This document shows positions 1,347 through 46,889 of a DNA stretch of 46,889 nucleotides, one piece after another. The notes below the pieces were generated by a model that saw nothing but the letters and a program-made list of their open reading frames with translations, had not been told where the DNA came from and ran no database searches. Numbering within the stretch: position 1 is the stretch's first letter; every line of letters starts with the position of its first letter. A program made the position numbers and the translations under genes. The stretch is from a virus (taxonomy: Duplodnaviria; Caudoviricetes). Where the stretch lies: positions 1 to 46,889 of IMG/VR virus record IMGVR_UViG_3300037125_000004. One strand, given 5' to 3'.

Positions 1347-2078
1347 ATGAGCAAAGAGTACCGCAAGGTTGCTATCATGGGTTTTGCCCCGTCATGGATT
1401 GAGGCACCGTTTAAGGACAAGTCTTTTGAAATATGGGCCTTAAACGAAATGTACAAATTGTTTGCACAAAAACCAGAGGCCAGGGCAGATAGATGGTTTG
1501 AAATCCATAGCCCAGATTCGCCGTCGAAGAATACAAAAGAGCACAGGGAATTTCTTCGGAATTGTGAAATCCCTCTGTATATGTGGGATCATTCAGATGA
1601 ATTTCCAAACTCTGTACGGTTTCCTCGAGAAGAACTGCTTGATTATTTTGGCGCACCGTTTGGCGAACAGTTTAGGTATTTTACAAACTCCATATCGTGG
1701 ATGATCGCTTTGGCTATCTACGAAGAATACGACGAAATTCATGTGTACGGTGTGGACATGGCCGCAGATTCAGAATACGGTATGCAACGTCCATCATGTG
1801 AGTATTTTTTAGGAGTTGCAGCGGGAAAGGGAATAAAACTTTATTTGCCCAAAACAAGCGATCTTTTGAAAAACACTCTTTTATATGGGTTTGAAACAGA
1901 CAACACCTTAAGAATAGCAATTAAGAAACGGATAAACGATTTAAAGGGTAAACGCATGAAATATCTAAACGAATTAAACAGATGCAAAGCCAGGGAAAAC
2001 GAATTAGAAGCTGCTATAAATCAATTGGACGGAGCGATGCAAGACAGTAAATACTATCTTACGAATTGGGTGGTGTAA
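1347..2078 (+). CDS. Putative sialyl-/nonulosonyl-transferase (CstII/GT42-, GT29- or Maf-like fold) with C-terminal coiled coil
   Basis: RBS AAGGAG, ATG 1347; KVAIMGFAPS...IWALNEMY...FTNSISWMIALAIYEEYDEIHVYGVDM parallels recalled CstII motifs KVIIAGNGPS...VFRCNQFY...TSGVYMCAVAIALGYKEIYLSGIDF. Confidence 0.7.
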   Translation: MSKEYRKVAIMGFAPSWIEAPFKDKSFEIWALNEMYKLFAQKPEARADRWFEIHSPDSPSKNTKEHREFLRNCEIPLYMWDHSDEFPNSVRFPREELLDYFGAPFGEQFRYFTNSISWMIALAIYEEYDEIHVYGVDMAADSEYGMQRPSCEYFLGVAAGKGIKLYLPKTSDLLKNTLLYGFETDNTLRIAIKKRINDLKGKRMKYLNELNRCKARENELEAAINQLDGAMQDSKYYLTNWVV

Positions 2079-2705
2079 ATGACCGCACAAGAATTGTTAA
2101 ACGATATTGATTTAAGATTACCCAATAAATTTGCGACAGCAACTAAAATAGGGTGGATTAATTCGTGTCTAAAAAAATATGAGGAGTGGTTTACGTCTAC
2201 TTCTTTATACCCGTTCAATACAACTGACGGTGAAGCGTATTATGATTATCCTACCGGAATGGAGCCAGACCGCATTCAGAAGATTGAAATTGCTTCGTCT
2301 GCTTCGTCAACAACATATAGCGAATACAACAAGGCCGGAATAAACGACGATCTGAGCGGCTTACAGTGGCTTAATGAGGCAACTACAGATGGAATGCAGT
2401 TAAGGATTTATCCCGCACCATCTACTACGGTAGAAGTTAAAGTGTACTATGAGGCAGCGCCCACCGCAGTAGCAAATTCATCCGACACATTGGATATAGC
2501 AGATGAACTAACTGACTTGCTAAAATACAACGTCATGAAAACAATTGCTCAATCGGGAGTTGCACCCGATATAGACTTAGGAAACAACTACTGGGAAGAA
2601 GAAAAAGAAGCGTTTCGCAATATCAAAATGAATTATTATAACAAAAAGCAAAAATTACCGAAGCAAACAAAAACATATAAAAAAGCATACTGGGGCGGTT
2701 GGTAA
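2079..2705 (+). CDS. Head-tail adaptor / tail tubular protein A-like
   Basis: Position and size; MTAQELLNDIDLRL N-terminus and LRIYPAP motif typical of podoviral adaptors. Confidence 0.65.
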   Translation: MTAQELLNDIDLRLPNKFATATKIGWINSCLKKYEEWFTSTSLYPFNTTDGEAYYDYPTGMEPDRIQKIEIASSASSTTYSEYNKAGINDDLSGLQWLNEATTDGMQLRIYPAPSTTVEVKVYYEAAPTAVANSSDTLDIADELTDLLKYNVMKTIAQSGVAPDIDLGNNYWEEEKEAFRNIKMNYYNKKQKLPKQTKTYKKAYWGGW

Positions 2706-4225
2706 TGGCAAGATGGACACAGGTTAGATACGAAAACGCCACAATTCAAAACGGTATAGGCAACGGTCTAGACCAAAATAAAAACCCGTACAGAGTGCAG
2801 GGCGACAAAGCAATATATATGAAAAACGGATGTGGAGCAATTTCGCCTGGGTTTCAGACAATGGAAGATATTTATTTAGATTCTGACTTTTCAACGCAGT
2901 TTCCCAAACAAATATTTGCAACTCCGTCAAGCGACGGTGGCACAGTGGATTATCTGAATGTTGTGACCGAAACAGCATGGTACGGAAAAAGCGTATCAAC
3001 TAATCCATTTTTGTCAACAGACTTTACTGAAATAGCTACCCTAACAACTGGTGGGTCGCGTCCTGGACTGGCACAATTAAAAACCGGAACAAAAACCTAT
3101 AATGTCATGATGGACAAGGTAAACAAAAAATATGCTGACATAGGAACAACGGGACTGGATATAACAAGCACGGGATGTCCGGCAACAAATATCGTAACTG
3201 TATATGGTAATAGAGTATACTGTGCGGCAAACGCTGTCTTGTATCATTCTGCTTTAGCTAAACCAGAAGATTGGACAACGGCAAGTGATTCGGGGAGTAT
3301 TCCTATAGGATCGGCAAAAAGCGATATTACTTGTCTTGTATCATATAACAATCATGTAGTTATATTTACTATGACATCCATGCACGAACTATACGGAAAA
3401 GGGCCGTCTACATTCCAGATTGTAGACGTATCAAACTCAATCGGATGTGTCAGTCATTTTGCGGCGGCAGAAGTAAACGGGATTTTATATTGGCTCGGGC
3501 GGGATGGAGTGTACTCTTACAATGGCGCAAAAATCACTGAGATAAGCGATCCGTTTATAAACGAAACGTTAGATAAAATGATAGCCGCAGGTTTAGAACA
3601 AAATCAATATTGCGCTGGAAGTTATGCGGGAAGGTTTTTCTTGTCTTATCACACTACAGATAGCGCTGCAGATGTTGATTGGGTTGAATACGACACCCAA
3701 AGAAAACAGTGGTATTCGGTAGAGACAAACTTTGATGATATCTCTACCTCAAAAACGTTAAAATATTTAGATGCATGTTCGCAGAACGCAAACAATTTTT
3801 ACGGGATAGGCAAAAACGGTTATGTATATACTCATTGGGCATCATCGACGGGCCACGGAACATTGCACGACACTTTATCATCCGAGACTGAACCAATCAA
3901 GTTTGAAGAATGGGGACCGCCCTATACAGATGGTACAATCTCAAACGAAAAAGTTCTCAAGAGAATGTACATGACGGCTGATGTAGGCAGCGATGCAAAA
4001 TTGTCTGTGGGGTATACAACCGAACCATATAGCTATAAAAACCCAGCGGCAATCGGAATACATTCTTTGGGAAACGTACTGCCTAGCAGGGACAAGGAAT
4101 CGGTTGAACTTGATATAACTCCACAGCCTGGTACGAAACAATATTCAATTGTTCTAAGTGGATTTGGCGACATAAAAGCGTTTTTGTTACAAAAAGATTA
4201 TCGTATACGGAGAAACAGCAGATGA
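2705..4225 (+). CDS. Tail nozzle / packaged-DNA stabilisation protein (P22 gp10 / T7 gp12-like beta-propeller)
   Basis: TAATG coupling to the previous gene; YGNRVY, IGCVS, LYWLGRDGVYSYNG propeller-type motifs. Confidence 0.7.
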   Translation: MARWTQVRYENATIQNGIGNGLDQNKNPYRVQGDKAIYMKNGCGAISPGFQTMEDIYLDSDFSTQFPKQIFATPSSDGGTVDYLNVVTETAWYGKSVSTNPFLSTDFTEIATLTTGGSRPGLAQLKTGTKTYNVMMDKVNKKYADIGTTGLDITSTGCPATNIVTVYGNRVYCAANAVLYHSALAKPEDWTTASDSGSIPIGSAKSDITCLVSYNNHVVIFTMTSMHELYGKGPSTFQIVDVSNSIGCVSHFAAAEVNGILYWLGRDGVYSYNGAKITEISDPFINETLDKMIAAGLEQNQYCAGSYAGRFFLSYHTTDSAADVDWVEYDTQRKQWYSVETNFDDISTSKTLKYLDACSQNANNFYGIGKNGYVYTHWASSTGHGTLHDTLSSETEPIKFEEWGPPYTDGTISNEKVLKRMYMTADVGSDAKLSVGYTTEPYSYKNPAAIGIHSLGNVLPSRDKESVELDITPQPGTKQYSIVLSGFGDIKAFLLQKDYRIRRNSR

Positions 4226-15373: not shown

Positions 15374-16459
15374 TCACTGGACTTTTGGCATAATTGAGTT
15401 AATCCTGTGAGCTGCATCTTTATCCATGCTTTCCAATACATCCTGGTATATGTCCATTGTTATTTGAGTGGTTGAATGTCCAAGCCGCTTAGATGCTGCT
15501 TTGATTGGAACTTTTTTTTGCAACATAACAGTAGCGTTAAAATGTCTTAAATCATGAAATCGTATGTGCTTAAGGTTGTTAGCTTTTAAAAATACAGCAA
15601 ATGCATGGGAATAAGCGTATGGCTTTACCGGAGATCCATCATCCATTGTAATTACAATTCCGTCTGCGCTCATGACTTTTTGTTTCTTCTTATGCTCTCT
15701 CAATGTCTGCATGATATATGACGGTACAGAAATAGTTCGGTCCCCAGATTCCGATTTAGGCCGCTTGTATTCCACTTCCCTATACCCATAGCTGGATTGA
15801 CATATATGAATAGTGTTTTTTTTGAAATCAATATCTTTCCATCTTAATGCAAACACTTCACCGCGTCTTAACCCAAGCCCACCAGCAAGAAGGACCGGAA
15901 GAAAGTGCCGTGTACCTTCCGCTTTTTTGAGCATTTTTTTATACTCCTGGGTAGTAGGGACATTGGCTTGATACTTTCTTTTTGTGATCGTTGGCAGCTC
16001 GGCATTGTCACAAGGGTTTTTCCGTGCTAAGTCTTGCTTCATCATGTCTTTAAAAAATTTATGCAAAATAGAGTGAACTTGTTTGATCGTAGCGTACTTC
16101 AATTTTTGATTAGCCATGTTTGCGTATAATCCATTTACTTTTGCTGTAGATACTTCTAATAGCCTCATATTGCCCATCCAGGGAATGATATGTTTATTGA
16201 TATACCTTTGATACCCCGCAACTGTAGTTGGGCTTAAAACGGCCTTACGGCCGTTTAGCCAGCCTTTAATTGTTTCTGCTACTGTTAGCCTAGAAGGACG
16301 CGCATAGTTTCCTGTCTCATATTCTTCTAATAATTTCCGCACCTTTATCTTTGCTTCTGCGCCGGTGGAAGCAGAGATATACCTTCTTTTGCCGTTTAGT
16401 AAAGTTATATATCCTCTCCAACATTTGCGGCGTTCATCATAAAAGACGCTCGATTGCAT
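15374..16459 (-). CDS. int: Tyrosine integrase
   Basis: GLRRGEV, HDLRH and LGHS...TMDIY catalytic R-H-R-H-Y motifs. Confidence 0.97.
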   Translation of the reverse strand: MQSSVFYDERRKCWRGYITLLNGKRRYISASTGAEAKIKVRKLLEEYETGNYARPSRLTVAETIKGWLNGRKAVLSPTTVAGYQRYINKHIIPWMGNMRLLEVSTAKVNGLYANMANQKLKYATIKQVHSILHKFFKDMMKQDLARKNPCDNAELPTITKRKYQANVPTTQEYKKMLKKAEGTRHFLPVLLAGGLGLRRGEVFALRWKDIDFKKNTIHICQSSYGYREVEYKRPKSESGDRTISVPSYIMQTLREHKKKQKVMSADGIVITMDDGSPVKPYAYSHAFAVFLKANNLKHIRFHDLRHFNATVMLQKKVPIKAASKRLGHSTTQITMDIYQDVLESMDKDAAHRINSIMPKVQ

Positions 16460-22968: not shown

Positions 22969-23306
22969 GTGAGAGCGGACAGGATTTATTTCTTGAATTG
23001 CGGGACAAACAACAACAATTAGAGGTGGCCCTAAGCGAATTAGGCAAGCGTGGCAAGGCGAGAGCGAAAGCAGAAAAAACATACAGACAGGCACTAAGAA
23101 AAGAAATACTGATAGAGCGAGATAAGGGGACGCCAGTAACCATTGTGTCTGATATATGCCGTGGAAGTAGAGGAATATCAGAATTAAGATTTGAGCGTGA
23201 TGTTGCGGATGTCGTGTATTCGTCTGCTAAAGATGCTATCCAAATATATAAGCTTGTGATGAAGATATTGAATGAGCAAATTGGACGGGAGTGGAATAGA
23301 CCATGA
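22965..23306 (+). CDS. Helical hypothetical protein of recombination module
   Basis: ATGA coupling; coiled-coil composition. Confidence 0.55.
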   Translation: MSESGQDLFLELRDKQQQLEVALSELGKRGKARAKAEKTYRQALRKEILIERDKGTPVTIVSDICRGSRGISELRFERDVADVVYSSAKDAIQIYKLVMKILNEQIGREWNRP

Positions 23307-23938
23307 CTTATAAAGGCTTTCTCCGTCTCACTATAGCCCTAATTATATTCACATATATCCTGGCTATATTCTTTGTAGCCACGGCAGACGGTGCAGACCT
23401 TATATCCCAGGTGGTCTATGAAGAATCAAGAGGAGAACCATTTATCGGTCAGGTGGCAGTAGCAGAGGTCATTTTGAACCGCGTATCTGCCCCGTATTGG
23501 TCCGACATAATCAAGGAGGTAATCTACCAATCGAATCAATTTGCGCTCCCACAGGGTAATTCTGATGCATCTACGGAGCAAGCAACAATGATAGCCGTGC
23601 AAGGCTCGGATATTGTACAGGGAGCGCAGTATTTTTTTAACCCGGACAAGTGTCAACCGGAATGGGCCGATGATCTGGAATACGTCTGTACCATCGGGAA
23701 CCATGCATTTTACCGCAGACCGGAGGAAGTCACGGACAGGGGATCATCAAGGGTGTTGTCTTTCGGATGCCGTGGGGAGGATGTGGAGGCTCTACAAGAG
23801 GCTTTAGGTATTGAGGCTGATGGGATATACGGACAAGAGACGTATGAGGCCATCAAAGCATTCCAGGAGGATTATGGGTTGGTTGTGGATGGAGTGGCTG
23901 GACCGCAGACGTTGAAGGAACTGGAGGCTACAATATGA
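23303..23938 (+). CDS. SleB-like cell-wall hydrolase (Hydrolase_2) with signal peptide and C-terminal PG-binding domain
   Basis: EESRGEPFIGQVAVAEVILNRV...QSNQF...YFFNP...IGNHAFY; DGIYGQET...DGVAGPQT. Confidence 0.9.
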   Translation: MTYKGFLRLTIALIIFTYILAIFFVATADGADLISQVVYEESRGEPFIGQVAVAEVILNRVSAPYWSDIIKEVIYQSNQFALPQGNSDASTEQATMIAVQGSDIVQGAQYFFNPDKCQPEWADDLEYVCTIGNHAFYRRPEEVTDRGSSRVLSFGCRGEDVEALQEALGIEADGIYGQETYEAIKAFQEDYGLVVDGVAGPQTLKELEATI

Positions 23939-32363: not shown

Positions 32364-32762
32364 ATGCTAAATAAAGTAGTCCTTATAGGTCGCCTCACCA
32401 AAGACCCGGAACTGCGTTATACAGCGACCGGCACAGCCGTATGTACATTTACTCTGGCAGTGGACAGGCAGAAAAAAGATGAAGCTGATTTTATACCTAT
32501 TGTGACGTGGGAGAAAATAGCCGAGAACTGCGGAAAGTATCTTGTGAAAGGTCGGCTTGTGGCAGTATGTGGGCGAATCCATGTAAGGAATTATGAGACC
32601 CAGGCAGGAGAGCGGCGGTATGTAACAGAGGTTATTGGTGACGAAGTTAAATTTTTATCATGGAAACAAGAAACAGAGAACGGGCCAGACATGAGTGGGT
32701 TTAACCCGGAACCACAAGAGCCGGAGCAGCAGAGCATGGATACGTTTTTTAAAAGGCGGTGA
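32364..32762 (+). CDS. ssb: Single-stranded DNA-binding protein
   Basis: MLNKVVLIGRLTKDPELRYT...EADFIPIV. Confidence 0.95.
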   Translation: MLNKVVLIGRLTKDPELRYTATGTAVCTFTLAVDRQKKDEADFIPIVTWEKIAENCGKYLVKGRLVAVCGRIHVRNYETQAGERRYVTEVIGDEVKFLSWKQETENGPDMSGFNPEPQEPEQQSMDTFFKRR

Positions 32763-32766
32763 TCAC

Positions 32767-33006
32767 ATGGACATACGAGAAAGCCTTATATTAAATCCTT
32801 TGCCAGATGATATACAAGAGGCTATCAGACGTGTTAGAATACGTCACAACACAAGCAAAGCGTTTGAAGTGTTCCGTATGCGGTTTATTGAAGGGCGGCC
32901 CTATGACGTGATAGCGGAAGCGAGACACTACGAGATAGGGACATGCAGGAACTACGCAAGCAGAATCATGCAGGAAATTGAGGCGGAAGTAGAGAATATA
33001 ATTTGA
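32767..33006 (+). CDS. Sigma region-4-like HTH protein (possible late activator)
   Basis: VFRMRFIEGRPYDVIAEARHYEIGTCRNY; last early gene. Confidence 0.65.
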   Translation: MDIRESLILNPLPDDIQEAIRRVRIRHNTSKAFEVFRMRFIEGRPYDVIAEARHYEIGTCRNYASRIMQEIEAEVENII

Positions 33007-33032
33007 CAGGAACGTATGTTCTATGGTATAAT
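33003..33032 (+). promoter_or_regulatory. Consensus SigA promoter with LexA box in spacer
   Basis: TTGACA-18-TATAAT with extended TG; GAACGTATGTTC at 33010-33021. Confidence 0.85.
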
Positions 33033-33038
33033 ATGATG

Positions 33039-33263
33039 AACTTGTGAAAGCGTAAATGCGCCGTAGCTGGTGTAAGGCTCTGTACTATCGAAGGTCTACG
33101 TGCCACGTGGAGTAGTATAGCGGCAGCTATCTAGGTAGTATGGGGCCATACGGAATTGCGGTGAGTGTTTGCGGACACCACTTAAGGTAATCGGATGCGT
33201 CCGGTTTCCTGCCTTATCGGGCGAAAAAAGAAAGCCGGGCGATTAAACCCGGTTTTTCTTTTC
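33039..33263 (+). ncRNA. Structured small RNA (~220 nt) of unknown family
   Basis: Own promoter and terminator, no ORF with RBS, multiple nested stems. Confidence 0.7.
33224..33263. terminator. Bidirectional intrinsic terminator
   Basis: AAAAAAGAAAGCCGGG-CGATTAAA-CCCGGTTTTTCTTTT. Confidence 0.8.
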
Positions 33264-36388: not shown

Positions 36389-37195
36389 ATGATTGCCAGA
36401 ATACTAAAAAAATATGAATTTGACCTTACTGATTGCGGCCCAATGGAATTTATCGGATGTTTAGCGGGAATTCCATACATTGTTCTCGTTAAAGCTGGTT
36501 GCAATTTTTTTGCAAGTATTGTTTTTACGCTTGTTGTACATTTTAGTATTATATTTTCTATTAGCAAAATACTAGAAAAAAACGGGAAACGTCCAGTTTT
36601 TATTACTGGATCTTTTATAACTTTATTTTCAATGGGCACACTACTAAACATTGGATTAGGAATAGCACGATTTTATGATTCAGCAATAGAACAAAATTTA
36701 GCCATTGTAAATGGAATTTTATTATGGGAATCTATCATTGCAGTATCTATTGTTAGTTTAATACATCTTTATATTTATATTAGCACAAGAATAAATAAAT
36801 TGCTTAATGAAACAATTATAAAAAACACAGAAAATAACATATTAATAAAATCGAAAAACATAAACAACAAATTAACAAACAAAAAGTTTAAAGGAATTTT
36901 TGACCTTGCAAAAGAAATATTAGAAAACATAGACGAAAACAACATAAAAATTGCGAATCGATTTTTGAATTATTATCTTCCGTTGGCTGAAAAACTAGAA
37001 CAAAAATATATTAAATATATAGATGTTTTTACGCCAGGAGCACAAGAAACGCTAATTAAAATTGAACAAACTTTGCCGATAATACAAAAAACGTTTGAGC
37101 ACGTATTGCAACATATTCAAGAACCTGATTATATGGATATAGATGCTGAACTAAAGGTATTGAAACAAATATCATTTGCGGAAGGTGGGAAATAA
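36389..37195 (+). CDS. Membrane protein with C-terminal XpaC-like domain
   Basis: About four TM helices, then RFLNYYLP...DIDAELKVL; very AT-rich. Confidence 0.7.
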   Translation: MIARILKKYEFDLTDCGPMEFIGCLAGIPYIVLVKAGCNFFASIVFTLVVHFSIIFSISKILEKNGKRPVFITGSFITLFSMGTLLNIGLGIARFYDSAIEQNLAIVNGILLWESIIAVSIVSLIHLYIYISTRINKLLNETIIKNTENNILIKSKNINNKLTNKKFKGIFDLAKEILENIDENNIKIANRFLNYYLPLAEKLEQKYIKYIDVFTPGAQETLIKIEQTLPIIQKTFEHVLQHIQEPDYMDIDAELKVLKQISFAEGGK

Positions 37196-37308: not shown

Positions 37309-38859
37309 TTGCTAGAAGAACTATCACGAAAAGAGCGCGAAGAACTTGCTTTGCTGCTGGAAGAAAAAGAACGGCGCAGAGAACAAGAAGCTATACGCTA
37401 TTACAATAAAGAAAAACGACATGAAAAGCAGATTGCTTTCCATAAGTCGCCTAAACGAATCCGGGCATTGTTCGGAGGCAACCGCACAGGCAAAACGGTT
37501 GGCGGATCCGTAGAGGGCGTGTGGTACGCAACCGGCGAACATCCGTATAAAAAAGACATTAAGCCATATATAAACCGTCCAAACAGAGGATGGGTTGTCT
37601 CATTGACAAACGAAGTCCAGCGTGACGTTGCACAGAAAGAAATTCTAAAATGGTTGCGACCCGATCAGATTCACGATGTAGTCATGAGAGTGGGCGCAAA
37701 AACAGACTACGAACATGGAATTATTGACTTGTTGATGGTCAAGCATATTTCCGGTGGGATATCAACGATAGGATTCAAAACAGTCGAGCAGGGCCGGGAA
37801 AAGTTTCAAGGTACAAGCCAGCACTGGATATGGGCCGACGAAGAAATACCAAAAGAAATATATGACGAATGCTTAATGAGACTGTTAGATACCCAGGGTG
37901 ATTTTTGGACAACCATGACACCGTTGAAAGGGCTGACGTGGACATATGAAGTCATATATGAAAACAGAAACGCTAACCCGGAAGTCCAATACTGGCAAAT
38001 GCAATGGTCGGACAACCCGTTTTTAACGCAATCAGAAATCAAATATCTGGAATCAACGTTGACGGAAGAAGAGCGCGAGGCACGACAATATGGCAGATTT
38101 GTAGCTTTATCGGGATTGGTTTACCCTGAATTTAGACAAGAAATTCATGTGATTGATCCGTTTCCGGTTCCTCATGGATGGTACGATAAAATATCAATCG
38201 ATCCTGGATTAACTGCTCCATTGTCATGTCATTGGTATGCATGCGACGATGAAGCCAACATCTACGCAATAGCAGAGCATTATGTTAAAGAAAAAAAAGT
38301 AGAATGGCACGCTGAACAAATTATAAAAAAATCTCAAGAATTGGATTGGCCATTTACTCAAAGCGGTAAACTATTAGCGGTAATGGATAGTGCCGCCACA
38401 CAAAATACGATTAACGCAGAACAAACTACAGCAGAGTTGTTTACACAGCACGGTATTGTACCTCAATTTGTAAACAAAAACGTGTGGGTAGGCATACAAA
38501 GGATGAAACAATATTTAACTCTAAGAGAACTGCCAAACGGTCACCCAGAGAAAGCAAAATACTCAAAAGGCAAACCTAAGTTTTTTATTACAACCGATTG
38601 TCCTAAAATGATCTGGGAAATGAAAAAATATCGGTGGGAAGAACCGCGAGACGGGGAACCTGTTGAACGACCAAAAAAGAAAAACGATCACGCTATGGAT
38701 GACGCTAGATACTACGTAATGTCACGGCCAAGCCCATTTGAAGCAGAAAAAGAACGGCTAAAAGGATGTTACCTAAGGTCAGAACTTATAGACAAAGGAT
38801 TTACGAATTATCAAATAAAACAAATGATTGAAAGAGGCGAGGTGAATTTAATCGGATGA
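37309..38859 (+). CDS. terL: Terminase large subunit (P22 gp2-like)
   Basis: LFGGNRTGKT Walker A, WADEE Walker B, TMTPLKG, SIDPG, NDHAMDDARY. Confidence 0.95.
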   Translation: MLEELSRKEREELALLLEEKERRREQEAIRYYNKEKRHEKQIAFHKSPKRIRALFGGNRTGKTVGGSVEGVWYATGEHPYKKDIKPYINRPNRGWVVSLTNEVQRDVAQKEILKWLRPDQIHDVVMRVGAKTDYEHGIIDLLMVKHISGGISTIGFKTVEQGREKFQGTSQHWIWADEEIPKEIYDECLMRLLDTQGDFWTTMTPLKGLTWTYEVIYENRNANPEVQYWQMQWSDNPFLTQSEIKYLESTLTEEEREARQYGRFVALSGLVYPEFRQEIHVIDPFPVPHGWYDKISIDPGLTAPLSCHWYACDDEANIYAIAEHYVKEKKVEWHAEQIIKKSQELDWPFTQSGKLLAVMDSAATQNTINAEQTTAELFTQHGIVPQFVNKNVWVGIQRMKQYLTLRELPNGHPEKAKYSKGKPKFFITTDCPKMIWEMKKYRWEEPRDGEPVERPKKKNDHAMDDARYYVMSRPSPFEAEKERLKGCYLRSELIDKGFTNYQIKQMIERGEVNLIG

Positions 38860-39770
38860 TTAAATGTGATGATACAGATTATGTGGGCTGGAAAGATATG
38901 AGTTTAGACGTACCATATACCGTTTTAATTGCGTCGCTAAACAAAAAATACTCATATGAAGATTTGCGCTATAAAGATGCGTATGTGGACCAGTATTATG
39001 ATTTAATTATTTCTTGCACTACAGGCACGAACCACATTGACAACCGAGACATACCTCTTTTGAAGCTGGAACCAGAGGATTGTAAAGATATATATTCTAC
39101 CGCCGAACACACCATAGGATTGATGCTTGCGCTTTTAAGAAACACAGTACAATCCTGTGGGGACACAGAAGAAAACAGAGACAAATACATAGGCCACACT
39201 CTCCATGGCAAGATATTGGGGATTGTGGGATACGGACGATTGGGAAAGATGGTTGCCAAATATGCGAAGTGTTTCGGTATGAAGATTCTAACCCACGATA
39301 AAACCGACCCAGACCAGAACTTAGAAGATTTACTAAGACATTCAGACATTGTAACATGTCATTTAAAATTAACCAGGGACACACGGCATTTTTTCTCATA
39401 CAACGAATTTGAACTCATAAACGGATGGTTTATTAATACGTCGAGAGGTGAAATCGTTAACACTGAAGCGTTGGCCGAAGCACTGGAAAACGGAAATGTC
39501 AAAGGCGCATCCTTAGATGTGGTGGACAAACCGGAGTTACTTATAAAGCCAAAAATATATTATCCAATTGGAAATGACGCAATGGTAGAACCTAAGTACG
39601 CCGCTATATATCATGCAGATACGTCAATGGAAATGAAATATATTGGCCCATATTTTACAGAAAATCTTATCATTACTCCCCACATAGGGGGTAACACAAT
39701 AGAAGATCGCAAAGCAACCCAAGAAATCATGAAAAGAAAGTTGATTAAATGGTTGGAAGTTTTTAAATAA
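38856..39770 (+). CDS. D-isomer-specific 2-hydroxyacid dehydrogenase (SerA-like)
   Basis: STAEHT, GIVGYGRLG, INTSRGE, LDV, ITPHIGG. Confidence 0.88.
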   Translation: MIKCDDTDYVGWKDMSLDVPYTVLIASLNKKYSYEDLRYKDAYVDQYYDLIISCTTGTNHIDNRDIPLLKLEPEDCKDIYSTAEHTIGLMLALLRNTVQSCGDTEENRDKYIGHTLHGKILGIVGYGRLGKMVAKYAKCFGMKILTHDKTDPDQNLEDLLRHSDIVTCHLKLTRDTRHFFSYNEFELINGWFINTSRGEIVNTEALAEALENGNVKGASLDVVDKPELLIKPKIYYPIGNDAMVEPKYAAIYHADTSMEMKYIGPYFTENLIITPHIGGNTIEDRKATQEIMKRKLIKWLEVFK

Positions 39771-39785
39771 AAAGGAGATTGCAAA

Positions 39786-40079
39786 ATGAAAGTTTTATTA
39801 AAAATAACAATGTTTATGCACACGAAAGCATGTACAATAATTTGGCTTTTACTGTCAATTGGCCTTCCAATGTTGGGCGGCATATTGCGTCAACACAGAA
39901 CAATATCGGTTATTTTAGCTTTAATGGGACTTTTTAATTTTTTGTTTGCTGGAATTGTAGAAAAACTTTTGGAAGATATAATAGAAAAATACGTATATAA
40001 ATCAAACAATACAGAAATCAAAGAATTAGTTGATATTTGGGCATATAATCGGGCTTCGTGGGAAGATACATATATTTAG
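39786..40079 (+). CDS. 2-TM membrane protein
   Basis: RBS AAGGAG; hydrophobic segments. Confidence 0.55.
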   Translation: MKVLLKITMFMHTKACTIIWLLLSIGLPMLGGILRQHRTISVILALMGLFNFLFAGIVEKLLEDIIEKYVYKSNNTEIKELVDIWAYNRASWEDTYI

Positions 40080-40109
40080 GAGGAAGAGTTTCTTGAAAAC
40101 CACAAGTGA

Positions 40110-40895
40110 ATGAAAATCATAGCCGAATGTTGTGCTAATCATAATGGCGACAAAAAAATCATAAAAAAAATGATTAAAACAGCCGCAGATGCTGGGGCCG
40201 ATGTTGTCAAGTTTCAGTCTTTTAAGGCCGACAAGTTAGTAGACAAAACAAACTACGACTACTACAAAGCCCGTGAACTATCGTATAAAGACCACGAAAA
40301 CATAATGGGCTGGTGTGCTCAAAGCCATGTTGGATTTTTGACGACTGTGTTTGACTTAGATATTGTTTATGAATTGGGCAAGCTGGGCATTAAGCGTGTG
40401 AAGATCGGATCGGCAGATTGCAACTCGTGGAAATTAATTGATAGGTGCCTTTCCATGTTTGAGCATGTATATATCTCAACGGGGATGCACTCGACGGAAG
40501 AACGGCTTGAACTCGTCAAAAGATTAAACAAATGGAACGCCAAACATGTAACCCTAATGCATTGTGTTTCGTTGTATCCGTGTCCCTTAGATAAACTGAA
40601 TCTTATAAACTTGGGCTTTTTGCATAGCTTGTGGCCAAGCATAGGTCTTTCGGATCACTCTCAAGGAACAGCCGCAGCAAAGTTTGTGGTAGCTAGCGGA
40701 ATAGACTGTCTAGAAAAACATTTTACCATCGATCCCACCATGGAAGGAAAAGACCAAAAGTTTGCCATGACACCGTTTGAACTAAAAGAAATATGCGATT
40801 GGCGAGACACAGTCCGAACTATGATGTGCGGAGAAGATCAATACCCCGATTTTCAATCAAGAAAGTATATAGGGAAATGGGGGAATAACAAATGA
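40110..40895 (+). CDS. neuB: N-acetylneuraminate/nonulosonate synthase (NeuB family, TIM barrel only)
   Basis: IIAE..ANHNGD, VKFQ, KIGS, ISTGM, HCVSLYP, GLSDH, LEKHFT. Confidence 0.93.
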   Translation: MKIIAECCANHNGDKKIIKKMIKTAADAGADVVKFQSFKADKLVDKTNYDYYKARELSYKDHENIMGWCAQSHVGFLTTVFDLDIVYELGKLGIKRVKIGSADCNSWKLIDRCLSMFEHVYISTGMHSTEERLELVKRLNKWNAKHVTLMHCVSLYPCPLDKLNLINLGFLHSLWPSIGLSDHSQGTAAAKFVVASGIDCLEKHFTIDPTMEGKDQKFAMTPFELKEICDWRDTVRTMMCGEDQYPDFQSRKYIGKWGNNK

Positions 40896-41869
40896 AACTA
40901 TGCGTTGCGATAGGCTCTAGGGCAAACTGGGGCCGGTTGAAAAGCGTTTGTGAATTTGCCCAGGACTATATGGACATTGAAAAGCTGGTGTTTTGTACTG
41001 GAATAGATCACACAGACGGGTATACGCTGAAAAACTATGTGGGCGGGAATGATCCAATCAACATGGTTTTGACTGATTCTTTGATATACTCACAGGTTGG
41101 AAACGCTTTAGAACACATTAAGCCTGATGTTGTTTTGGTGCATGGCGATAGATACGAAGTCTTACCCATAGCAGTTACGGCAATGTACATGAAAATCAAA
41201 GTTGCTCACACAGAAGGCGGAGAAACAACAGGATGCATTGACAATAAAATTCGCAATATGATCACGGCCGCAGCAGACATACATTTTCCCGTAACTGAAA
41301 AAGCTGCATCAAGAATACGAAATGCAGTAGAAAAAACAAACATTATAACAGCAGTAGGGTCCACTGCTTTAGATTGGATAAACAGAGAACAAATAAAGCC
41401 GGAAAACTATACCCTTGTCTTGCTTCATCCGGAAACATTGATAAGCGAAAACATTAATGAATTTTTTGCAGCAATAGAAGAGTTGCCTTGTCCTATTTTC
41501 ATTAATCCCAATACGGACGCTGGGAACGTAGATGTATCAAAAGAAATACACGCGAGAGAATTTACCATGATAAAACATCAATCACCCGAACAATATATTG
41601 AACTGATGCGGAAATGTTCGTTATTAATTGGAAATACTTCATCTGGCATAAAAGAAGGGTCTTATCTGGGCATTCCCTATGTGTGCGTGGGAAATCGTCA
41701 AGCTGGACGGGAAAAGGACAAAAACGTCATAGAAGTCCCTATGAAGAAAAAAGACATTTTGGACGCAGCGGATAAACTTTACGGAAAACGATTTGCACCA
41801 TCTAACAAATTCGGTGATGGACATGCAGCAGAAAGGATAGTGAAAACTTTACTATGCGAAAACAATTAA
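40892..41869 (+). CDS. neuC: Hydrolysing UDP-GlcNAc 2-epimerase (NeuC/LegG family)
   Basis: GSRANWG, HGDRYE, AHTEGGE, IGNTSSGIKE, VGNRQAGR, FGDGHAAERI. Confidence 0.93.
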   Translation: MKLCVAIGSRANWGRLKSVCEFAQDYMDIEKLVFCTGIDHTDGYTLKNYVGGNDPINMVLTDSLIYSQVGNALEHIKPDVVLVHGDRYEVLPIAVTAMYMKIKVAHTEGGETTGCIDNKIRNMITAAADIHFPVTEKAASRIRNAVEKTNIITAVGSTALDWINREQIKPENYTLVLLHPETLISENINEFFAAIEELPCPIFINPNTDAGNVDVSKEIHAREFTMIKHQSPEQYIELMRKCSLLIGNTSSGIKEGSYLGIPYVCVGNRQAGREKDKNVIEVPMKKKDILDAADKLYGKRFAPSNKFGDGHAAERIVKTLLCENN

Positions 41870-42042
41870 GATGCCCTTTTGACGGTAGACGCTTATTGGA
41901 TTACAACGAAGATTTTACTTTTGAGTTTATCCCAGGATCAACCGAGGGGTACACGAGAACGATAGAAGTTGCCTGTCCAACCTGTCGCCAAAAAAGACAC
42001 GGCAGACATATTTTAAAGTTTGGAGAGCCGATACATGATTGA
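41854..42042 (+). CDS. Com-like zinc-ribbon peptide
   Basis: LRCPFDGRRLL...IEVACPTC. Confidence 0.5.
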   Translation: MRKQLRCPFDGRRLLDYNEDFTFEFIPGSTEGYTRTIEVACPTCRQKRHGRHILKFGEPIHD

Positions 42043-42742
42043 TTTAGCTATTATTCCCGCTAGAGCAGGATCAAAGAGAGTGCCGGGTAAAAACACTCGG
42101 TTGTTATGCGGAAAACCTCTCATTCAGTGGACGGTAGAAGCGGTGGAACAGTCACAGTATATAAAAGACTATGTAATATCAACAAATATACCATTTGTGC
42201 TTGACACATACGAAAAAATAATGGAACGTCCCGAGCGGTTATGTGGCGATGATGTGCCCATGGCAGAAATTATTAAAGACGTTTTACTTAGATACCTATA
42301 TATAAAATTTTTTAACGGCGAACACCCGGAAAGGCCATTGAGAAACATAGTGTTGCTACAACCATCAAGCCCGATGCGAACAGGAGAAGATATCGACAAT
42401 GCTTATTTTTTAGAGAGAAAAGCAAATGAAGGACAGCCGTTCGGTGGGCGCGTACCTGTTGTTAGTGTATGTGAAACAACGGCAAAAAAACGAATGTATG
42501 CAGATGATGAAAAGCCAATGGGAGAACAGACGGCATATGATAAAGGCAAAGATAAAACATGCTATCAAAGAAACTCTGCAATATTTATTTTTCAAGCCAT
42601 TAGGTTTATTGAAACCAACCAAATTATTCACGATGATCCAATACTCTATAAAATGCCAAAATCCCGCTCAATAGACATAGACACAAAAGAAGATTGGGAC
42701 ATGGCAGAAGCGTTGATGAAAGCAAAACTAGCAAAAACATAA
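42035..42742 (+). CDS. neuA: CMP-N-acylneuraminate synthetase (NeuA family)
   Basis: IIPARAGSKRVPGKN, LLQPSSPMR, YQRNSAIFI, SIDIDTKEDW. Confidence 0.93.
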   Translation: MIDLAIIPARAGSKRVPGKNTRLLCGKPLIQWTVEAVEQSQYIKDYVISTNIPFVLDTYEKIMERPERLCGDDVPMAEIIKDVLLRYLYIKFFNGEHPERPLRNIVLLQPSSPMRTGEDIDNAYFLERKANEGQPFGGRVPVVSVCETTAKKRMYADDEKPMGEQTAYDKGKDKTCYQRNSAIFIFQAIRFIETNQIIHDDPILYKMPKSRSIDIDTKEDWDMAEALMKAKLAKT

Positions 42743-42838: not shown

Positions 42839-43000
42839 ATGTTAATGATTTTAGGAGCAACTATTTTGATTGCCGGGTTTATACCCGGCTTTTTTATTGG
42901 ACGGATGCACCGCAAGAAACCGTCTGTGGATAAGTATGGAAAATACAAAAACGAAGATGGACTCTACACGGGAAAACGGGTGAAAGATGGACGAAATTAA
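42839..43000 (+). CDS. Small N-terminally hydrophobic peptide overlapping a terminator-like hairpin (42872-42897)
   Basis: Translated manually (MLMILGATILIAGFIPGFFIG...), 53 aa; GCCGGGT-TTAT-ACCCGGC-T7. Confidence 0.4.
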   Translation: MLMILGATILIAGFIPGFFIGRMHRKKPSVDKYGKYKNEDGLYTGKRVKDGRN

Positions 43001-44786
43001 AAGCACACGCGATGAATACATGACAGAAGAAGAAATGCAAATGGTTGACGATTATCTCAACCAGATAGAAGAGTCTCGTTCTTTAATGGATCCCCACTAT
43101 ACACAATGGGAAAAAATAGACGAAGTATATTCCTGCGATCAAGAGTTAGAAACAGATCAACCCAACACACGAGCAAACATAGTTAACGCAAACATAGAGG
43201 GTCAGGTAGCTATGATCATGGCGGCTCCCATAGATTGCATTGCGGAAGGACAAACGCCATCGGACAAGCCATTTGAGGACGTAACGCAAGCCGCTTGCGA
43301 ATGGGTATTACAACAAAACAACATTAAATTATTAATAGAGCATCATGAACGACGCAGATGCAAGTTCGGACCGGGAACATTTAAAATTACATTTGATCCC
43401 ACATGGAAAAACAACTTTGGGCTTCCCGTGTTTTCCGTAGTTCCTCCAAATCGGTTTTTTGTGGATTCCAGCATAACATCACCCCTAGATTTTTGCCGTG
43501 CAGAACACATGGGCGAAGAATTTTTCTATCCTGATTCATGGTTTAAGAAACAGAAACGATTTAACGAAGAAGCTGTAAAAAATTTGAGAAGCGGCGATGA
43601 CGATAGATCTCCAATATGGAACACACAATATACAACACAAGATAAGCAAAAAATGATTCGGTATTTGCAAATATGGAGATTTGAAAACGGAAATTTGCAA
43701 TTACTTGAATTTACTGGAAACGGTGTGCTGCTTTATAAATCTGATTCAAGCAAGCCGTATTATAAGTACAACAAATATCCGTATTTCTTTACGCCTAATT
43801 ACGTAAAAGAAGGAGATTTGTGGGGATTTGGCGACGGTAAACTATTGGTTCCACTCCAGGAAACAATCAACAAACTGTACGACCAGATTATGAAAGCCGC
43901 CAAACCAAACAAATTCTTGATTGATCCTGCGTCGGAAATAGACCCGGAAAGTTTCAATGATGACGAAACCAACGTTGCTCCGTGCAACAACCCAAACCAA
44001 AACGTCAGACAAGTAGAAATGGGTCGCGTTAATGCAAATTTGTGGCAACTAATAGCGTCTTTTCACACAGAAGCGCAACGAGCAACGCGATATTCCGAAT
44101 TGATGATGGGCCAGTCCTCAAAGGCTAGTACAGCGACAGAAGCGGTCATACAGCAACAACAAGGAAATTCGGCAACAGACCACAAAAAGATGATGCTGGA
44201 ACTGACATTAGGAAACATGCTGAAATATGCGTTTTCTATGATGCTAGAACATTACGACGCAGGAAAGATGTTTAGAATTGCGGGTGATCCGGTAAGGTTT
44301 GTGTGGGCTGATTTTAACAGCATGAAAAACATTCCAGTCATGGTTCCGGCAGATTCAAAATTTAAAAGTAAATGGAAAAAATCAAACGAGGACGCGCCTC
44401 CCCCTGAATTTATGGTGTTAGAAAGCAAGGGTAAAGGGCAGACGCGAGACGTTGATATCGACATAAAAGTCACCGTTGGAGATGGACTTCCGAAAAACAA
44501 ACAGTTTATCCTACAGCTCATGCAAAGTCTTGCCCCATGGGTAATAGAAGGCAAACCTGTATTAACGTGGGAAGAAGCGCGTAAATACCTGTCGGAAGAT
44601 ATAGGACTTCCCCTACAGCACAATGATTACGCTGGGCAGCAGATAGACCAATCACAGGAACAAACCTTACAGCGTGAAATGCAGCTACAGCAAGCCGGTG
44701 CGCCAGAAGCAACAGCCGGTATGGCAGAAGGTGGACCTTCTTTATCGGATTTACCCGGAAGGGCATTAAGTAGGGCTGGAAGATGA
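42987..44786 (+). CDS. Portal protein (P22/podovirus-like)
   Basis: 599 aa; NIVNANIE, YPYF...GFGDG, ELMMG...TATEA motifs; position after terminase. Confidence 0.85.
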   Translation: MDEIKSTRDEYMTEEEMQMVDDYLNQIEESRSLMDPHYTQWEKIDEVYSCDQELETDQPNTRANIVNANIEGQVAMIMAAPIDCIAEGQTPSDKPFEDVTQAACEWVLQQNNIKLLIEHHERRRCKFGPGTFKITFDPTWKNNFGLPVFSVVPPNRFFVDSSITSPLDFCRAEHMGEEFFYPDSWFKKQKRFNEEAVKNLRSGDDDRSPIWNTQYTTQDKQKMIRYLQIWRFENGNLQLLEFTGNGVLLYKSDSSKPYYKYNKYPYFFTPNYVKEGDLWGFGDGKLLVPLQETINKLYDQIMKAAKPNKFLIDPASEIDPESFNDDETNVAPCNNPNQNVRQVEMGRVNANLWQLIASFHTEAQRATRYSELMMGQSSKASTATEAVIQQQQGNSATDHKKMMLELTLGNMLKYAFSMMLEHYDAGKMFRIAGDPVRFVWADFNSMKNIPVMVPADSKFKSKWKKSNEDAPPPEFMVLESKGKGQTRDVDIDIKVTVGDGLPKNKQFILQLMQSLAPWVIEGKPVLTWEEARKYLSEDIGLPLQHNDYAGQQIDQSQEQTLQREMQLQQAGAPEATAGMAEGGPSLSDLPGRALSRAGR

Positions 44787-46256: not shown

Positions 46257-46721
46257 ATGATTAGAAGCGCTAACGTGGGCAGCTACGTTCAAGTATTGCC
46301 CGGTGCTGGCAGCTTGGGTAATATAGGCAGTTCCGACCTTGGAAAACTTTTAACAGAAAGTTCCGGAAAAGCTGTATTACAATCCAGCACCAGCACATCC
46401 ATTCCTAAAATTTTGGGAATGGTTGCAAATGTTCCCGTTGATACAACCGGCGGGAGCACCGTACCTTTTTATGTTTGGGATGTGAGGGGTAAGGAGATTG
46501 AACAGACCTATACCACTCTAGCATCCGCTACGCTACCCGCAACTACCGACATTGGCAGTTATGTAGGCTGGTCTACGGCCTCCACTGGTGCCGCTGGCGG
46601 CATTATCGGTATGGATACTGCGTCATCCGCACCCGGTAAAGCATTCTTGAAGATTACTGGTTTTGACAACAACCGCAGAAAAGTTTTTGGTCGCGTCAAT
46701 ACCACTAATCTAGCACTGTAA
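46257..46721 (+). CDS. Ser/Thr-rich capsid decoration/auxiliary protein
   Basis: Between scaffold and capsid; about 23% Ser+Thr by manual count (36/154). Confidence 0.65.
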   Translation: MIRSANVGSYVQVLPGAGSLGNIGSSDLGKLLTESSGKAVLQSSTSTSIPKILGMVANVPVDTTGGSTVPFYVWDVRGKEIEQTYTTLASATLPATTDIGSYVGWSTASTGAAGGIIGMDTASSAPGKAFLKITGFDNNRRKVFGRVNTTNLAL

Positions 46722-46734
46722 AGGGGTGTGAATT

Positions 46735-46889
46735 ATGGCTGTATTAACAAGAGCAGATATTAGCCGGATGCTAGAAGCGGGACAAAAGAAAATTTTCTTT
46801 GATGCGTTCAACTCAACGCCCCCGCAGTATCCCATGTACACAACTGAAATGACTTCCGACAAAGCCCAAGAAACCTACGACAGCATGGG
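46735..46889 (+). CDS. Major capsid protein, 5' part (continues at position 128)
   Basis: ATG 46735 is in frame with ORF 6..863 through the terminal overlap. Confidence 0.85.
   Translation, partial: MAVLTRADISRMLEAGQKKIFFDAFNSTPPQYPMYTTEMTSDKAQETYDSM

Follow-up and report, generated by a model that had tools for sequence, protein, structure and literature searches.

Nonulosonate transfer in described systems and its proposed counterpart in a phage head module

The closest described parallels to the system reported here are the Maf enzymes (PF01973), which O-link nonulosonates to flagellin (M. magneticum Maf, PDB entry 5MU5; C. botulinum; G. kaustophilus), and the C. jejuni sialyltransferases CstII and Cst-I of the glycosyltransferase (GT) family GT42 (PF06002; PDB entries 1RO7 and 2P56), which occur with neuBCA. 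NeuC, NeuB and NeuA together convert UDP-N-acetylglucosamine (UDP-GlcNAc) to CMP-N-acetylneuraminic acid (CMP-Neu5Ac), and homologues make legionaminic-type sugars. Here, we analyse a 46.9 kb phage record, IMGVR_UViG_3300037125_000004 (46,889 nt; ‘the window’ denotes this whole stretch), which carries homologues of all three genes between the terminase large subunit (terL) and portal genes and a Maf-like transferase candidate (positions 1347–2078) behind the capsid gene. We propose that the NeuC, NeuB and NeuA homologues make a CMP-nonulosonate late in infection and that the 1347–2078 product O-links this sugar directly at Ser–Thr (S-T) loops of outer virion proteins, a reading to which we assign a probability of about 0.74. 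Intact neu genes, a Maf-like predicted fold and S-T enrichment together make it likely that the phage sugar-coats its own particle, and at the level of sequence this self-coating is supported by the co-occurrence of the genes, by the head-module location of the transferase and by an S-T excess tied to its presence.

The proposed way of working is that of Maf, yet the system falls outside both Maf and GT42 on Pfam score and architecture. The 1347–2078 product is a protein of 243 residues with one domain and a long helix, whereas Maf 5MU5 has three domains and 632 resolved residues; it gives no PF01973 match, its gene lies in a head module rather than a flagellar locus and its family is found mainly in phages. 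Moreover, it is proposed to act on virion proteins bearing an S-T motif; Maf enzymes, by contrast, are without a known sequon according to the available text of two sources (PMC11339370; 10.1101/2023.12.03.569772). With CstII and Cst-I it shares the profile and fold of the nucleotide-binding core and the three-enzyme donor pathway, but identity is about 17–20%, the match is under the family cut-off and the enzymes for an underlying glycan were not found.

In mycobacteriophages the GTs belong to other families and the sugars are neutral. These phages encode O-glycosylation of capsids and tails (Freeman et al., 2023, as cited in the available part of PMC11652166), and the likeness to our locus lies in a transferase gene in the virion module and in the proposed phage-encoded O-glycosylation of the particle; the window phage differs in carrying a donor pathway of its own, for an acidic nine-carbon sugar, together with an enzyme of predicted Maf/GT42 fold. 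Giant viruses likewise encode nucleotide-sugar synthesis and transferases (as with the Kdo pathways predicted for CroV and Fadolivirus), but they infect eukaryotes and their Kdo pathway is unvalidated in the available text of the review concerned (PMC9614988), in which no word beginning with sialic, nonulosonic, legionaminic or neuraminic occurs. The prophage genes epaA–epaB of Acinetobacter baumannii also act on a nonulosonate; unlike the window genes, they epimerize a host-made sugar in the host capsule, and the accessible part of the report describes no de novo synthase–epimerase–transferase set (PMC12053666). We found no report of a phage-made nonulosonate on virions in the literature covered, which excluded subscription journals and supplements.

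Predicted donor-sugar genes between terminase and portal

The cluster is anchored upstream by terL (37309–38859; PF03237; phrog_2, E = 1.8e-33) and downstream by the P22/SU10-like portal gene (42987–44786; PF23899, phrog_156). Every gene in it lies on the + strand and none has an internal stop. It begins with a D-isomer 2-hydroxyacid dehydrogenase (38856–39770; PF02826, E = 1.8e-37), which overlaps terL by 4 bp, conserves GxGxxG, R197 and H276 and might act on the sugar itself or provide an acyl group for it; the original prediction included this gene in its interval without mentioning it. There follow the NeuB-family nonulosonate synthase (40110–40895; PF03102, E = 1.6e-54), the NeuC-family hydrolysing UDP-GlcNAc 2-epimerase (40892–41869) and the NeuA-family CMP-nonulosonate synthetase (42035–42742; PF02348, E = 1.5e-16). 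The family motifs of the cluster enzymes are kept in 26–31 homologues each, and the GC content of the neu cluster is similar to that of the remainder of the genome. Gene calls and motif conservation thus agree with the original prediction of intact, co-oriented neuB, neuC and neuA homologues between terminase and portal, and the partial overlap coupling that it described is seen in the 4 bp shared by neuB and neuC. From orientation and overlaps only, we infer that the neu genes and gene 1347–2078 belong to one operon.

The profile and structure searches that had been suggested for the cluster confirmed the neu families. NeuC scores 242.4 bits against TIGR03568 (cut-off 235.9) compared with 67.5 for the non-hydrolysing WecB, and its best PDB matches are human GNE (4ZHT, E = 6.5e-37) and bacterial NeuC (5XVS/5ZLR, E = 1.7e-32). 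NeuA scores 61.3 bits against PF02348 (cut-off 22.6) and best matches the CMP-Neu5Ac synthetase 6IFD over residues 4–231, its full length (E = 3.2e-16). NeuB, with 185 bits against PF03102 (cut-off 22.1) and 6NCS (290 residues) as its best PDB match, conserves K34, Q36, K98, S101, S123, S181, H183, E202 and H204, which include metal- and phosphoenolpyruvate (PEP)-binding residues. At 261 residues it is short: it gives no match to the SAF domain (PF08666) and its TIGR03569 score of 200.5 bits lies below the cut-off of the full-length NeuB equivalog (399.65) but above its PseI score of 147. Short NeuBs lacking SAF occur in environmental bacteria, according to the available text of PMC8208679.

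Sequence did not separate Neu from Leg (legionaminic) synthases for the window NeuB, the matches of which bear mixed names. The aminotransferase of the Leg and Pse (pseudaminic) routes, PF01041, is absent from the window genome and present in two of 20 records, both of other lineages, and no dehydratase of these routes was recognized among the window open reading frames (ORFs) scanned with Pfam. Because the genome lacks this aminotransferase, a Neu5Ac-type backbone is favoured on gene content; a host-supplied Leg/Pse precursor is possible. The constancy of the dehydrogenase in relatives suggests that the product may be a modified nonulosonate.

Searching with the transferase profile gave 214 viral loci, the best 80 of which were examined with fetched flanks, many of them short; within these flanks neuB was found at 29 loci, neuA at 26 and neuC at 25. 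A portal-based search gave 54 loci, 31 of them showing terL, and 24 relatives once duplicates and four distant portals had been set aside; as its portal alignment was built from transferase-bearing loci, this search is biased towards the window clade. Between terL and portal, the dehydrogenase, neuB and neuA are each present in 24/24 relatives, neuC in 23/24 and a SAM methyltransferase in 13/24. In 15 of the 24 the transferase gene is part of the cluster and in six it follows the capsid gene; three loci stop short of the capsid gene. Many relatives have it immediately between neuB and neuC. The four distant-portal loci lack the cluster. At the level of whole records, NeuB was found in 26 of 45 transferase-bearing records, chosen mainly by length, and in all 12 of those at least 90% complete (nine of the window clade and three of other head types). 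Among 50 control records picked by capsid, tail-tube or portal similarity, none had the transferase and one had NeuB (weak fragments); neither was found in the 14 near-complete controls. Co-distribution of the neu genes with the transferase had been set beforehand as a test of the proposal, and it held. The head-module placement of the transferase holds across unrelated capsid types, and in siphovirus-like loci it is usually one gene past the capsid gene. Overall, the profile matches 5,271 clusters at 50% identity, and in other lineages the family is paired with PseB-like, GNAT, PIG-L and aminotransferase genes.

Several variations on this arrangement were seen. Five loci (L025, L032, L038, L057 and L058) show extra genes between terL and portal: the transferase family is represented two or three times, the dehydrogenase twice, or HNH endonucleases are inserted into the transferase or next to it. 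An ORF of about 240 residues (L003, 3391–4140; cluster c24), absent from the window, adjoins neuA in 9/24 relatives; by eye it resembles a truncated UDP-glucose/GDP-mannose dehydrogenase, with no Pfam match at 1e-3, and it may diversify the sugar. In the unrelated phages L037 (11230–19348) and L050 (8056–10735), Pse-type genes are interleaved with portal/head genes beside the same transferase family.

The transferase candidate and its putative acceptors

Gene 1347–2078 (+ strand) lies after the capsid gene and a gene for a 141-residue protein, and before the head–tail adaptor gene. The major capsid gene (PF10124, PF25209, phrog_371) is continuous over the 127 nt terminal repeat, from 46735–46889 into 1–863 on the + strand, which places gene 1347–2078 downstream of it. 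CheckV estimates the completeness of the window record at 52%; since relatives of 47.9–53.0 kb are rated 97–100% complete and the capsid gene spans the repeat, we treated the window as a whole circular genome.

The 1347–2078 protein alone gives no significant match in Pfam (PF06002 included), NCBIfam, PHROG or PDB. However, its family profile matches CstII (E = 1.8e-5) and its structure model matches the Maf and Cst folds, with fold homology to GT42 over the CMP-binding core (Foldseek E = 8.9e-8). Residues 2–176 form the predicted transferase domain, a Maf-style modified GT-A domain resembling CstII, and a long C-terminal helix spans residues 187–241. In sequence the family is nearer to CstII/Cst-I than to Maf; structurally, Cst-I ties with Maf. 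PF01973 has no match in the window genome and matches 14 of 120 transferase relatives weakly (best E = 0.001), and PF06002 matches 11/120 and 1/109 relatives weakly. The motifs aligned to CstII (GxxPS, N33, GxD and Y144) are near-invariant in the family. The conserved E52, D137, E143 and S115/S117 are candidates for the Maf acidic pair and serine, without a residue-level alignment to 5MU5. The invariant H54 and Q147 are candidate catalytic residues, though the alignment to CstII, the catalytic histidine of which is His188, ends at about residue 163.

The putative acceptors surround this gene, all on the + strand. They are a likely capsid decoration (cement) protein (46257–46721), with five S-T sites, all in predicted loops; the 141-residue protein (877–1302), a probable head spike or fibre with 30% Ser+Thr and six S-T sites against 3.1 expected; the head–tail adaptor (2079–2705; PF24175), with a family S-T observed/expected ratio (O/E) of 2.58; and a probable tail nozzle or tubular protein (2699–4225; phrog_3287, phrog_511), with a family O/E of 2.11. 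The portal family (O/E 0.61) and the major capsid family in the window clade (O/E 1.03) are not enriched. In outer virion proteins the S-T excess is tied to the presence of the transferase, and three transferase negatives nested in a positive capsid clade show no excess (33 versus about 34). In L232 (record G076), a transferase-negative phage inside a positive capsid clade, Ser/Thr-rich proteins persist but S-T is not in excess; weak NeuB fragments are present, and the system is possibly decaying or replaced. In the Atlas, the 141-residue protein resembles unnamed viral clusters and, weakly, T4 gp9/10-N. In the closest relatives (L001–L003, transferase about 80% identical) an unrelated gene of 299 residues replaces it, so the presumed spike appears exchangeable.

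Several observations weigh against this proposal. The catalytic base is unmatched to either CstII or Maf, the alignment ending before it would reach the CstII histidine. A quick capsid tree places the 13 positives of one lineage in a single clade with three label changes, so the independent contrasts are few, and the window's own clade holds no real transferase negative. Two of three capsid families show no S-T enrichment and some transferase-positive loci are flat (L019 and L034). Finally, PP496355 has a 30%-identical homologue beside the terminase small subunit gene (terS) yet no NeuB match and no S-T excess, so not every member of the family fits. This homologue (L094, 9905–10708) is the only one from a cultured phage; it lies directly before terS, and the profile match suggests that its annotation, ‘type 11 methyltransferase’, is wrong.

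In the mechanism that we propose, NeuC would hydrolyse host UDP-GlcNAc to N-acetylmannosamine, which NeuB would condense with PEP to a nonulosonate and NeuA would activate with CMP to a Neu5Ac-type sugar; the dehydrogenase, joined by the methyltransferase in relatives, may modify the backbone. The Maf-like transferase would then O-link the sugar to Ser/Thr hydroxyls in the cytoplasm during assembly, preferably at a small residue followed by S-T-(A/G), on the decoration protein, post-capsid spike, adaptor and nozzle. The outcome would be a dense negative coat, which may change how particles adsorb to minerals or cells, how they aggregate or how easily proteases reach them. We suggest more tentatively that minimal, sequon-directed O-nonulosonyltransferases form a phage family of wide distribution that armours many tailed phages with self-made sialic-type sugars at S-T-(A/G), in the window clade with a native Ser/Thr-O-Neu5Ac or a new oxidized/methylated derivative, the sequon having evolved repeatedly under the presence of the enzyme. 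If true, phage virion glycosylation would reach beyond a few mycobacteriophages: a large system equipped with an acidic sugar pathway of its own would have been overlooked, and the surface charge, persistence and recognition of phages in anoxic as well as environmental communities would have to be seen differently. The system would further yield a small soluble enzyme that attaches a sialic-type sugar at a short peptide motif, whereas the Maf enzymes are without a known sequon, and possibly a native Ser/Thr-O-Neu5Ac linkage. This linkage has so far been reported only from engineered E. coli, where Mafs made it and where the available text terms it previously unknown in any organism (10.1101/2020.06.03.131540).

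Competing explanations and genome context

The sugar, made by the prophage or by an infecting phage, might instead be placed on host flagellin or a cell-wall polymer, blocking superinfection or changing host recognition. The window phage is temperate, as it encodes a tyrosine integrase (15374–16459, − strand; PF00589, E = 2.7e-23), and it also has a repressor-like gene; Maf enzymes act on flagellin, and prophage EpaA/EpaB alter capsular pseudaminic acid in Acinetobacter (available text of PMC12053666). A sigma70-like site (10/12) before terL and a hairpin before the portal gene (42872–42889; another lies at 1302–1323) also count for this reading, both within chance numbers (terminator-like sites, 15 versus 11.8 and 14 versus 10.8 in scans). 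The original prediction held that the late-operon location argues against lysogenic conversion: for a temperate phage location alone is insufficient, but the integrase-less relatives and the S-T motif do argue against it. Indeed, integrase families PF00589 and PF07508 are both absent from 7 of the 12 near-complete carriers, the terL–portal location is fixed in the clade and the transferase lies beside capsid genes in unrelated phages. The profile has just 12 matches in 185,579 GTDB genomes, all on contigs of metagenome-assembled genomes, and the S-T excess of virion proteins would be left unexplained. We consider host-surface conversion improbable.

It is also unlikely that the enzyme, in the manner of CstII, adds a cap to a glycan which a host or unrecognized glycosyltransferase has already built on the S-T sites. 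The sequence affinity of the family and the structural tie of Cst-I with Maf speak for such capping, as does the O-glycosylation of mycobacteriophage capsids and tails by phage enzymes (available part of PMC11652166). Yet no GT2 or GT4 gene was found in 20 carrier records (other GT families were not searched), and the S-T motif follows a single enzyme family across phages of differing capsid types. With no such partner in these records, the enzyme more resembles a protein O-transferase of Maf type that acts by itself. The ‘sialyltransferase-like’ gene of the original prediction stands in its location and CstII likeness, but its product appears not to be a glycan sialyltransferase.

Another reading makes the 1347–2078 product a structural protein, or a (pyro)phosphoryl transferase of MptE/TPK type, acting at S-T sites, with the neu genes serving another purpose; this is very unlikely given the frequent position of the gene directly between neuB and neuC, the NeuB contrast between carriers (12/12) and controls (0/14) and the near-invariant CstII-aligned motifs. 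The least probable alternative, modification of packaged DNA or of a packaging/defence target, is suggested by the abutting terminase and by phage glycosyltransferases that hypermodify DNA (10.1101/2023.12.21.572611), but no base-modification gene was recognized among the Pfam-scanned window ORFs, the cluster sits in the late rather than the replication region and a protein-level S-T motif would be unaccounted for.

Three small ORFs accompany the cluster on the + strand. A hydrophobic ORF of 97 residues (39786–40079) has no family match, is absent at the same place in the close relative L003 and has no tblastn match in 80 loci; it is probably a recent insertion outside the system. A zinc-ribbon-like CxxC ORF of 62 residues (41854–42042) has an 85% identical copy in L003, and a hydrophobic ORF of 53 residues before the portal gene (42839–43000) has tblastn matches in L003 and L012.

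The portal and adaptor are of P22/SU10 type, and YopX, BppU, cell-wall hydrolase and GH25 lysin domains suggest a Gram-positive host. A cell-wall hydrolase that resembles SleB and carries a peptidoglycan-binding domain (23303–23938, + strand) lies in the early/replication region, not in a lysis module. Between terS and terL, a low-GC, moron-like gene (36389–37195, + strand) encodes a membrane protein with a PF10112 (5-bromo-4-chloroindolyl phosphate hydrolysis) domain. Directly after a Sigma70_r4_2-domain gene (32695–33006), the interval 33003–33257 (+ strand) contains a perfect sigma70/sigmaA consensus promoter with an extended −10 element and, some 200 nt further on, a terminator-like hairpin; this layout resembles a late promoter under antitermination control, presumably akin to lambda pR′.

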